64,000 bases of DNA, from positions 73,470,001 through 73,534,000 of the forward strand of contig OX597831.1 of assembly GCA_951406725.2 (NCBI GenBank), written 5' to 3'. Shown here in pieces: positions 11,829 through 13,750 of the stretch (positions are counted from its first letter, which is position 1; every line of letters starts with the position of its first letter). Below the pieces are notes generated by a model. It was not told the DNA's origin. It saw only the letters and a list, made by a program, of their open reading frames with translations, and did no database searches. A program made the position numbers and the translations under genes. This stretch comes from Octopus vulgaris (Eukaryota).

Positions 11829-12616
11829 GGTGCAGGAGTGGTTGTGTGGTAAGTAGCTTGCTTGCCAACCACATGGTTTCGGGTTCAGTCCCACTGCATG
11901 GCACCTAGGGGAAGTGTCTTCTACTATAGCCTCGGGCTGACCAAAGCCTCGTGAGTGGATTTGGTAGACGGAAACTGAAAGAAGCCTGTCGTATATATGT
12001 ATATATATATGTGTGTGTGTATATGTTTGTGTGTCTGTGTTTGTCCCCGCAACATCGTTCGACAACCGATGCTGGTGTGTTTGTGTCCTTAGCAGTTCGG
12101 CAAAAAGACACCGATAGAATAAGTACTAGGCTTACAAAGAATAAGTCCCGGGGTCGATTTGCTTGAGTAAAGGTAGTGCTCCAGCATGGACTGAAACAAG
12201 TAAAAAAAAAAATCAAGATATATATGGGAGTGGCTGTGTGGTAAGTAGCTTGTCCACCAACCACATGGTTCCGGGTTCAGTCCCACTGCATGGCACCTTG
12301 GGCAAGTGTCTTCTACTATAGCCTCGGGCTGACAAAAGCCTTGTGAGTGGATTTGGTAGACGGAAACTGAAAGAAGCCCGTCGTGTATATGTATATATAT
12401 ATATATGTTTGTGTGTCTGTGTTTGTCCCCCTAGCATTGCTTGACAACCGATGCTGGTGTGTTTATGTCCCCGTTACTTAGCGGTTCGGCAAAAGAGACC
12501 GATAGAATAAGTACTGGGCTTACAAAAGAATAAGTCCTGGGGTCGAGTTGCTCGATTAAAGGCGGTGCTCCAGCATGGCCGCAGTCAAATGACTGAAACA
12601 AGTAAAAGAGTAAAGA

Positions 12617-12617: not shown

Positions 12618-12666
<49 letters not shown>

Positions 12667-12668
<2 letters not shown>

Positions 12669-12917
12669 CGAAGGCTAGACAGGCATCTCAACCAGCAGGT
12701 TCACTATCCTGGGCTGATGACGGGTAGACCCAGAAACATGCATGTTCTCAGGTGTGAATCCTAGCTGGTGGGGATGCTTGCCTCCCCTTCGTAAAATATA
12801 AGGACACAGGAAATGTGTCAAAGCCGACAGGAAGCATCGATGCTTCCTATGACTAAACAGCGGTGGTGTAATTCCCTTACGGGACTGTCATATTATGTTG
12901 ACAGTATACAACCACTC
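12667..12917 (+). mobile_element. hammerhead-containing structured non-coding element (retrozyme/Penelope-associated candidate) in (TA)n
   Basis: Almost entirely base-paired ~250-nt island between two TA tracts; contains a hammerhead core; shares motifs with 31875-32072 and 56703-56888. Confidence 0.65.
12708..12752 (+). ncRNA. type I hammerhead ribozyme
   Basis: Stem I CCTGGG (12708-13)/CTCAGG (12747-52); CTGATGA 12714-20; stem II GGG(T)/(A)CCC; GAAA 12733-36; palindromic stem III AACATGCATGTT; GUU triplet predicts cleavage after 12746. The 10.1:11.1 pair is a non-canonical C-A. Confidence 0.75.
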
Positions 12918-12921
12918 TATA

Positions 12922-12983
<62 letters not shown>

Positions 12984-13391: not shown

Positions 13392-13750
13392 TTTACTCTT
13401 TCATTTTTTTCAGTTATTTGACTGCGGCCATGCTGGAGCACCGCCTTTAGTCGAGCAACTCGACCCCGGGACTTATTTTTTTTGTAAGCCCAGTACTTAT
13501 TCTATCGGTCTCTTTTGCCGAACCGCTAGTGACGGGAACACACCAGCATCGGTTGTCAAGCAATGCTAGGGGGACAAACACAGACACACACACACATATA
13601 TATATATTTATATATATATATACGACAGGCTTCTTTCAGTTTCCGTCTACCAAATCCACTCACAAGGCATTGGTCGGCCCGGGGCTATAGCAGAAGACAC
13701 TTGCCCAAGATGCCATGCAGTGGGACTGAACCTGGAACCATGTGGTTGGT
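13392..13750 (-). mobile_element. SINE family A
   Basis: Reverse-complement copy lacking the first ~30 nt. Confidence 0.88.

Follow-up and report, generated by a model that had tools for sequence, protein, structure and literature searches.

Within the 64,000-nt stretch of Octopus vulgaris DNA studied here (the window, on C18 of the 2.8-Gb genome), positions 12652..12920 of the + strand hold a truncated copy of a 352-nt repeat unit. We put the probability at about 85% that this unit is a non-coding, non-LTR retrozyme with a covarying hammerhead ribozyme, predicted to self-cleave and likely copied into (TA)n by a Penelope-like element (PLE) acting in trans. The copy, delimited by 92.6% identity to the unit at L009 and by the anatomy of the locus, spans unit positions 27-295 and stops at the "short" 3' end of the family. 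The original prediction, made from the window sequence, had taken the element to be ~250 nt long, and what it described is a truncated copy of the longer unit. The stems, core, GAAA, palindromes, GUU, rod and (TA)n flanks that it listed were all present in the sequence where they had been placed.

The type I hammerhead lies at 12708..12752 on the + strand, as do all parts of the unit named below, and is indicated by the sequence, by pair probabilities and by covariation across subfamilies. It conforms to CUGANGA...GAAA...NUH, with three helices of which helix I is the open one. It consists of stem I (CCTGGG/CTCAGG, 12708-13 and 12747-52), the hammerhead core (12714-20), stem II (GGG 12722-24 and CCC 12729-31, flanked by C12721 and A12732), GAAA (12733-36) and a palindrome (12735-46) in which 12736-45 can pair as stem III. 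Hammerhead numbering places the predicted cut after U17, here position 12746, so that cleavage is predicted at 12746..12747, behind a GUU triplet. Beyond helix I there is an internal loop, and sequence, fold and pair probabilities extend stem I into a long imperfect rod (12668..12792) with outermost arms at 12668-74 and 12786-92. The 3' structured domain (12803..12917), recognized by its fold and as the portion retained by most truncated copies, comprises a hairpin (12803-19), a palindrome (12829-48) and a branched section up to 12917. The perfect 20-nt palindrome of the original prediction is present at 12829-48, but it is a variant found in 4 of the 30 top loci. The (TA)n target tract on the 5' side (12618..12666) merges with the unit's internal TA tract, and that on the 3' side covers 12918..12981.

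When the region 12650-12930 was folded as + strand RNA, the predicted energy was -111.8 kcal/mol (z -8.0), and 0 of 200 shuffles were equally low. The stability of the - strand was close to this (z -7.7), and the strand can therefore not be assigned by folding alone; the + strand, which the prediction had favoured, is assigned by the core motif instead. Pair probabilities in the window copy were 0.82-0.98 for stem I, 0.83 for stem II and 0.06-0.09 for an intramolecular stem III. The secondary-structure check proposed with the prediction gave a strong + strand fold from which the three-way junction is reachable at a predicted cost of 2.3 kcal/mol above the minimum, and two-molecule pairing of the stem III palindrome was predicted at -13.3 kcal/mol. 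Rfam scans of the window, proposed as a further check, gave no hammerhead match up to E 5 and E 10, and the matches obtained were discarded as chance hits on TA tracts. The bare core pattern occurred 3 times in the 64-kb window, where 1.5 were expected, and is not above chance. The case for a hammerhead hence rests on its conservation in the family.

As a truncated monomer the window copy cannot alone yield unit-length RNA; it consists of one short-end arm with a single ribozyme and is most likely a dead end. No ORF1 or RT match was found in the window, and no ORF with RT and GIY-YIG in the window or in the dimers described below. Presumed RNA runs have a step in depth close to the predicted cut, but it recurs in the large unlabelled runs X15 and X17 and was therefore dropped as a sign of cleavage. 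The element is surrounded by copies of a SINE-like repeat of ~375 nt (11835-12189, 12226-12600 and 13408-13750), which has 31 matches in the window.

Family structure and conservation of the ribozyme

A DNA search of the genome with the element returned 2,441 first-look candidates, of which 40 were scored and the best 30 loci mapped. In these 30 loci the unit is 352 nt long and its end runs into its own start, giving permuted partial tandems. A 21-nt 3' motif has at least 690 exact matches in the genome, and the core with stems II and III at least 125, both lower bounds that count exact patterns only, while the reversed controls gave 0 in each case; the genome does hold further copies with the core, on which the prediction depended. 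A two-core pattern with a spacing of 325-355 nt had 8 matches at 4 places. Three of these are dimers, and the fourth combines a dimer with an array of a 50-nt sub-repeat. Head-to-tail dimers with one ribozyme per unit are L108-L110, with a period of 354 nt, and L069. No long array of full units was found by this exact-pattern search. The earlier caveat that only a monomer is present consequently holds for the window, but not for the genome.

Cut to cut, the monomer of L110 is 354 nt long with 44% GC, and its predicted circle is 67% paired (z -9.3); for the monomer of a second subfamily (L108) the predicted circle reached a z of only -2.8. Subfamilies are 66-80% identical to the reference unit, and the unit was matched by contigs from runs with three different organism codes (A, B and D). 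At L111:620-1530 (- strand numbering; G000:C23:42.84 Mb) about 18 copies of a 50-nt sub-repeat stand directly before a dimer; the sub-repeat contains core, stem II and GAAA, the 5' portion of a hammerhead from a sister subfamily, but no cleavage triplet.

Conservation was analyzed in 73 motifs extracted from the fetched loci by a core filter, 61 of them distinct. All six stem I pairs were intact in 45 of the 61, five in 12 and four in 4. The triplet was GUC in 47, GUU as in the window in 7 and another in 7, which makes GUU a minority form in the family. Core positions 3 and 8 were C-G in 58 motifs and U-A in 3, with no mixed pairs; the same swap from C3-G8 to U3-A8 is described for PLE hammerheads in the text of Cervera & De la Pena (2014, PMC4209133). 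The core-side bases of stem II were C-A in 43 motifs, U-U in 7, A-U in 7, U-A in 3 and G-A in 1. The prediction had asked whether 12721 is normally T; with C-A in 43/61, C12721 opposite A12732 is the commonest state, and hence the family norm and not a mutation. These two bases flank a G-C pair and are either a mismatch under strict numbering or a PLE-type extra base plus one more. The PLE hammerhead consensus, as given in the article text, has one extra nucleotide between A9 and G10.1 (PMC4209133), and judged from the sequence C12721 can be read in an alternative register as such an extra base, with G12722-C12731 as the canonical pair. The extra A12732 is absent from the published PLE consensus.

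For covariation we aligned 32 of the 73 motifs, chosen to span subfamilies. In this core-filtered set, in which relatedness inflates the shuffle control, 95.2% of the cells were paired and 8 of 11 pairs varied on both sides, while the covariation score was reached by 0 of 500 shuffles and slid controls were 18-52% paired. Stem I alone takes at least five distinct sequence forms. To judge from these alignments, the ribozyme helices are conserved with compensatory changes across diverged subfamilies.

This conservation bears on whether the ribozyme could be a non-cutting structural relic, with a PLE RT copying linear read-through RNAs without cleavage or circles. The non-canonical 10.1/11.1 positions (C-A in 43 and U-U in 7 of 61), the change of U4 to C in the core of 10/61 motifs, the weak monomeric stem III and the low in vitro activity published for PLE hammerheads (PMC4209133) would all suit a relic. 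However, core, stems and triplet are kept with compensatory changes between subfamilies at the level of divergence given above, axolotl HHR_Amex2 is described as cleaving despite a U-U mismatch at the base of stem II (PMC7229834, article text), and linear templates would need long tandem masters, none of which was found by the two-core search. We consider a relic unlikely, and take the unit to be a predicted self-cleaving retrozyme in what follows.

Insertion marks and Penelope-like elements

The copies share a characteristic insertion anatomy. Among the first 100 matches listed for the 3' motif, pairs within 600 nt were head-to-head in 19 cases, and tail-to-tail or same-strand in none. At 24 distinct loci on C1 an inverted arm was present in 14 and a TA/TC tract within 100 nt in 15; most copies are 5'-truncated, and the core was retained in only 2 of the 24 sampled arms. 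The ends fall into two classes, near unit positions 295 (33 ends) and 350 (34 ends), and 6 more continue into the next unit. A short end was combined with a long one in 19 of the 23 head-to-head insertions, two alike never occurred together, and in the remaining 4 one end was otherwise cut. PLE insertions are described in the text of Craig et al. (bioRxiv 2021.04.23.441226) as having partial tandems, an inverted 5'-truncated copy, a one-end tail and TA targets. With their truncation, partial tandems, inverted arms, short and long ends and TA tracts, the copies of the octopus family match this published anatomy.

The genome contains many elements with RT and GIY-YIG, and these carry the CX4CxxC motif given for Neptune and Nematis in the same text (bioRxiv 2021.04.23.441226). 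Among 30 of these loci, 19 have at the 3' end a minimal hammerhead with a U3-A8 core and the palindromic stem III of the retrozyme, behind which short or long ends lie in (TA)n. In a single case (L128/L161) a decayed PLE RT and a copy of the unit stand head-to-head in one insertion, as would result from the use of both RNAs by one enzyme. Inverted pairs are likewise formed by a second RT group of PLE type, probably Naiad. No sequence kinship between unit and PLE was detected in the loci searched: the unit was matched in 0 of 30 GIY-YIG loci, a sample covering part of the genome's PLE families, a one-motif probe had no match in 15 loci of the second RT group, and L166 and L167 of that group had no unit match. 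A likeness between the ends of the unit and of the PLE is not significant, as 10% of shuffles score as high. A PLE would nevertheless be the partner suggested by the insertion marks.

Two young PLE-type families (L084-L107, with 781-aa and 1312-aa frames) have many full-length open frames with identical scores, and the first of them carries the U3-A8 minimal hammerhead. A third GIY-YIG family may have a hammerhead of its own (L105:1998 and L081:2377, oriented numbering), in L105 with stem II flanked by C and A as in the retrozyme.

If the unit were no more than a pLTR, the terminal repeat of some autonomous PLE, and its copies 5'-truncated PLE insertions, the truncation of most copies, with the core in only 2/24 sampled arms, would be accounted for, and ribozymes of this kind do occur in PLE pLTRs (PMC4209133, article text). 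Yet the tandems and dimers join the end of the unit to its own start with no ORF between, the GIY-YIG loci do not match the unit (0/30), and in the 30 loci selected by the 3' motif it is not entered by any PLE ORF on its own strand. At L129 there is an upstream RT fragment, but an inverted unit arm lies in between. We regard it as very unlikely that the unit is only such a repeat. Taken together, the 352-nt non-coding size, within the 150-450 nt expected of the class, the type I hammerhead, the dimers, the PLE-like marks and the co-occurring hammerhead-bearing PLEs place the unit among the non-LTR retrozymes, mobilized, as it appears, by a PLE in trans. The claim of a non-autonomous ribozyme retroelement family was in this respect well founded: the family is multicopy and non-coding, with type I hammerheads, retrozyme-sized units, dimers and Penelope-type insertion marks.

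LINE insertions beside the ribozyme

Junctions in other copies define a LINE target at about unit positions 61-81, which corresponds to 12687..12707 (+ strand) in the window. Elsewhere this target is occupied by ORF1-only and by full Tx1-like LINEs, and it is empty in the window copy. In 3 of the first 30 loci the unit is joined to a common 1.7-kb body. The ORF of this body is ORF1-like, with a zinc knuckle, and RT is absent; the body terminates in AATAAA, and 10-21 nt from unit positions about 61-81 are duplicated on its two sides. Among the first 30 of 81 exact matches to the 3' end of the ORF1 element, a hammerhead core follows 21-36 nt downstream in 23, from all subfamilies; of the other seven, two are stacked in the same target and five lie elsewhere. 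At L164 a full Tx1-like RT occupies the same target site. Truncated copies with intact duplications, in the unit (L195) and elsewhere (L187, L194), show independent LINE-type insertion.

The ORF beside the unit was considered as a Penelope RT and rejected, as it is ORF1-like: it has a weak zf-CCHC match below the cut-off, a match of 30% over 181 aa to the ORF1 of the neighbouring LINE and CCHC/ZCCHC3-like neighbours in the Atlas. Arrays of ~1.8-kb ORFs were likewise rejected as ribozyme arrays (L064-L066, L074), no core being found in them. That the unit is the terminal part of a ~2-kb coding element (ORF1 plus ribozyme), with the 352-nt form as a deletion derivative, would agree with the unit-ORF-unit layout at many loci, with the 23/30 proportion in an unbiased set of ORF1-element ends and with the apparent re-copying of composites as units, but it is highly improbable and largely refuted by the duplications, as the ORF1 body ends in an AATAAA of its own and keeps 10-21-nt target duplications even when 5'-truncated (L195), is found with duplications at unrelated sites (L187, L194, L051, L056), forms ribozyme-free arrays (L064-L066) and shares its site with a full Tx1-like RT (L164). 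The ORF is therefore a later, targeted insertion into the retrozyme unit.

Some composites of unit and ORF1 body nevertheless seem to have moved together. L032, L033 and L014 are head-to-head insertions in which one arm starts inside the ORF1 body; these arms are without the upstream duplication and stop at the unit end, and L033 and L014 have the pattern of one short and one long end. Among 8 picked loci, four (L183, L202, L207, L227) are cut in the body, have no duplication and continue through the unit, three have duplications and one is complex. Later deletion could mimic single composites but hardly paired arms, and the Penelope route appears to have copied several composites anew. Measured from core to core, L070 has 2,036 nt with an intact 463-aa zinc-knuckle ORF, and L073 has 1,854 nt with a 354-aa ORF. 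We tentatively raise the possibility, itself doubtful, of a captured cargo, in which the ORF1-only LINE homes upstream of the ribozyme and the ~2.0-kb RNA (L070) is cut, circularised and reinserted by Penelope. If true, this would amount to a ribozyme circle with a protein gene, served successively by the machineries of two unrelated retrotransposons, and the apparent re-copying of composites suggests a route by which ribozyme RNAs gain protein genes.

Several further arrangements of the LINEs were observed. The 5' flank of the ORF1-only element at L049 resembles the 5' end of U1 snRNA and could mark an snRNA-LINE chimera or an snRNA target. At L064/L076 (G000:C4:70.03-70.05 Mb) a complete LINE, which has ORF1 and an RT ORF of 882 aa, carries at its 5' end a stack of five ~99% identical ORF1-only units, and no hammerhead is present. 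Arrays of a related ORF1-only subfamily (66-68% aa) occupy another target in L065, L066 and L074; those of L074 lie downstream of a PLE-type RT, so that the tails of further PLE families may be targets of such LINEs. Single ORF1 copies at L068:6196-7176 and L074:6373-7740 have, by eye, many apparent A-to-G changes relative to their array neighbours (Lys/Arg, Glu/Gly and Tyr/Cys replacements), possibly a trace of RNA that was edited before it was reverse-transcribed.

Relation to known systems and proposed route

In mussel, non-LTR retrozymes of 350-390 nt are known to give circular RNAs (Cervera & de la Pena 2020, PMC7229834), and the octopus family is a further member of this class. It has in common with the metazoan retrozymes of that article's text a type I hammerhead, a non-coding unit of ~350 nt with GC below 50% (44% here), a highly paired predicted circle, a weak palindromic helix III suiting dimers and co-existence with PLEs. 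In contrast, it consists mostly of dispersed truncated monomers and copies of 1.1-2 units in place of long arrays, no large TSDs were seen, it has PLE-type inverted arms and two fixed ends, and its RNA and cleavage are predicted. With the hammerheads of PLE pLTRs (PMC4209133, article text) it shares the palindromic helix III and the U3-A8 variant and, if read in the PLE register, the extra nucleotide after A9 and G10.1-C11.1. It differs in having a complete helix I of 6 bp that continues in a long rod, a helix II of only 3 bp and a further extra nucleotide ahead of G12, and in lacking an RT ORF.

A dependence of retrozymes on PLEs has been proposed by Li, Clavereau and Pollet (bioRxiv 2026.07.22.740005), in whose text 8 of 9 predicted Xenopus retrozyme dimers failed to cleave and no cephalopod is among the sampled animals. 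Proposed PLE trans-mobilisation and many monomers are common to both systems; the Xenopus elements show sequence kinship with pLTRs, whereas in octopus no kinship was found and the footprints indicate PLE machinery. The LINE insertions recall the target-specific Tx1 LINEs described in the text of PMC4494074 (Tx1 in Tx1D, Tx1-Mar in Mariner-N4), which also insert at a fixed position of another repeat, stack upon one another and duplicate their target, but in octopus the repeat that is hit is a ribozyme retroelement, and a PLE enzyme seems to have re-copied the composite. The ORF1-only LINE of octopus can be set beside HAL1, whose members are ORF1-only elements, and differs in that it inserts in a ribozyme retroelement.

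The family had been suggested to be undescribed in cephalopods. Our literature search, which for hammerheads in cephalopods returned mostly shark papers, found no account of this family or of Tx1 in retrozymes, and the supplements of PMC7229834 and bioRxiv 2026.07.22.740005 could list the family; the class itself is already known in molluscs, from the mussel elements of the former article's text.

We propose that a head-to-tail locus would be transcribed and that two hammerheads would then pair via the palindromic stem III and release a 352-354-nt monomer, which by its predicted fold probably closes into a ring with extensive pairing. The RT/GIY-YIG protein of a PLE, with Neptune/Nematis as the most likely type, could prime at two fixed points 55-57 nt apart and, as the shapes of the insertions suggest, copy more than one round, presumably with the circle as template.

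The finding extends the non-LTR retrozymes, a known class, to this lineage, and it names substrates that can be tested, such as the dimer L110. Through their inverted arms and their short and long ends, the copies also provide countable footprints for the proposed, as yet unproven, link between retrozymes and Penelope elements.
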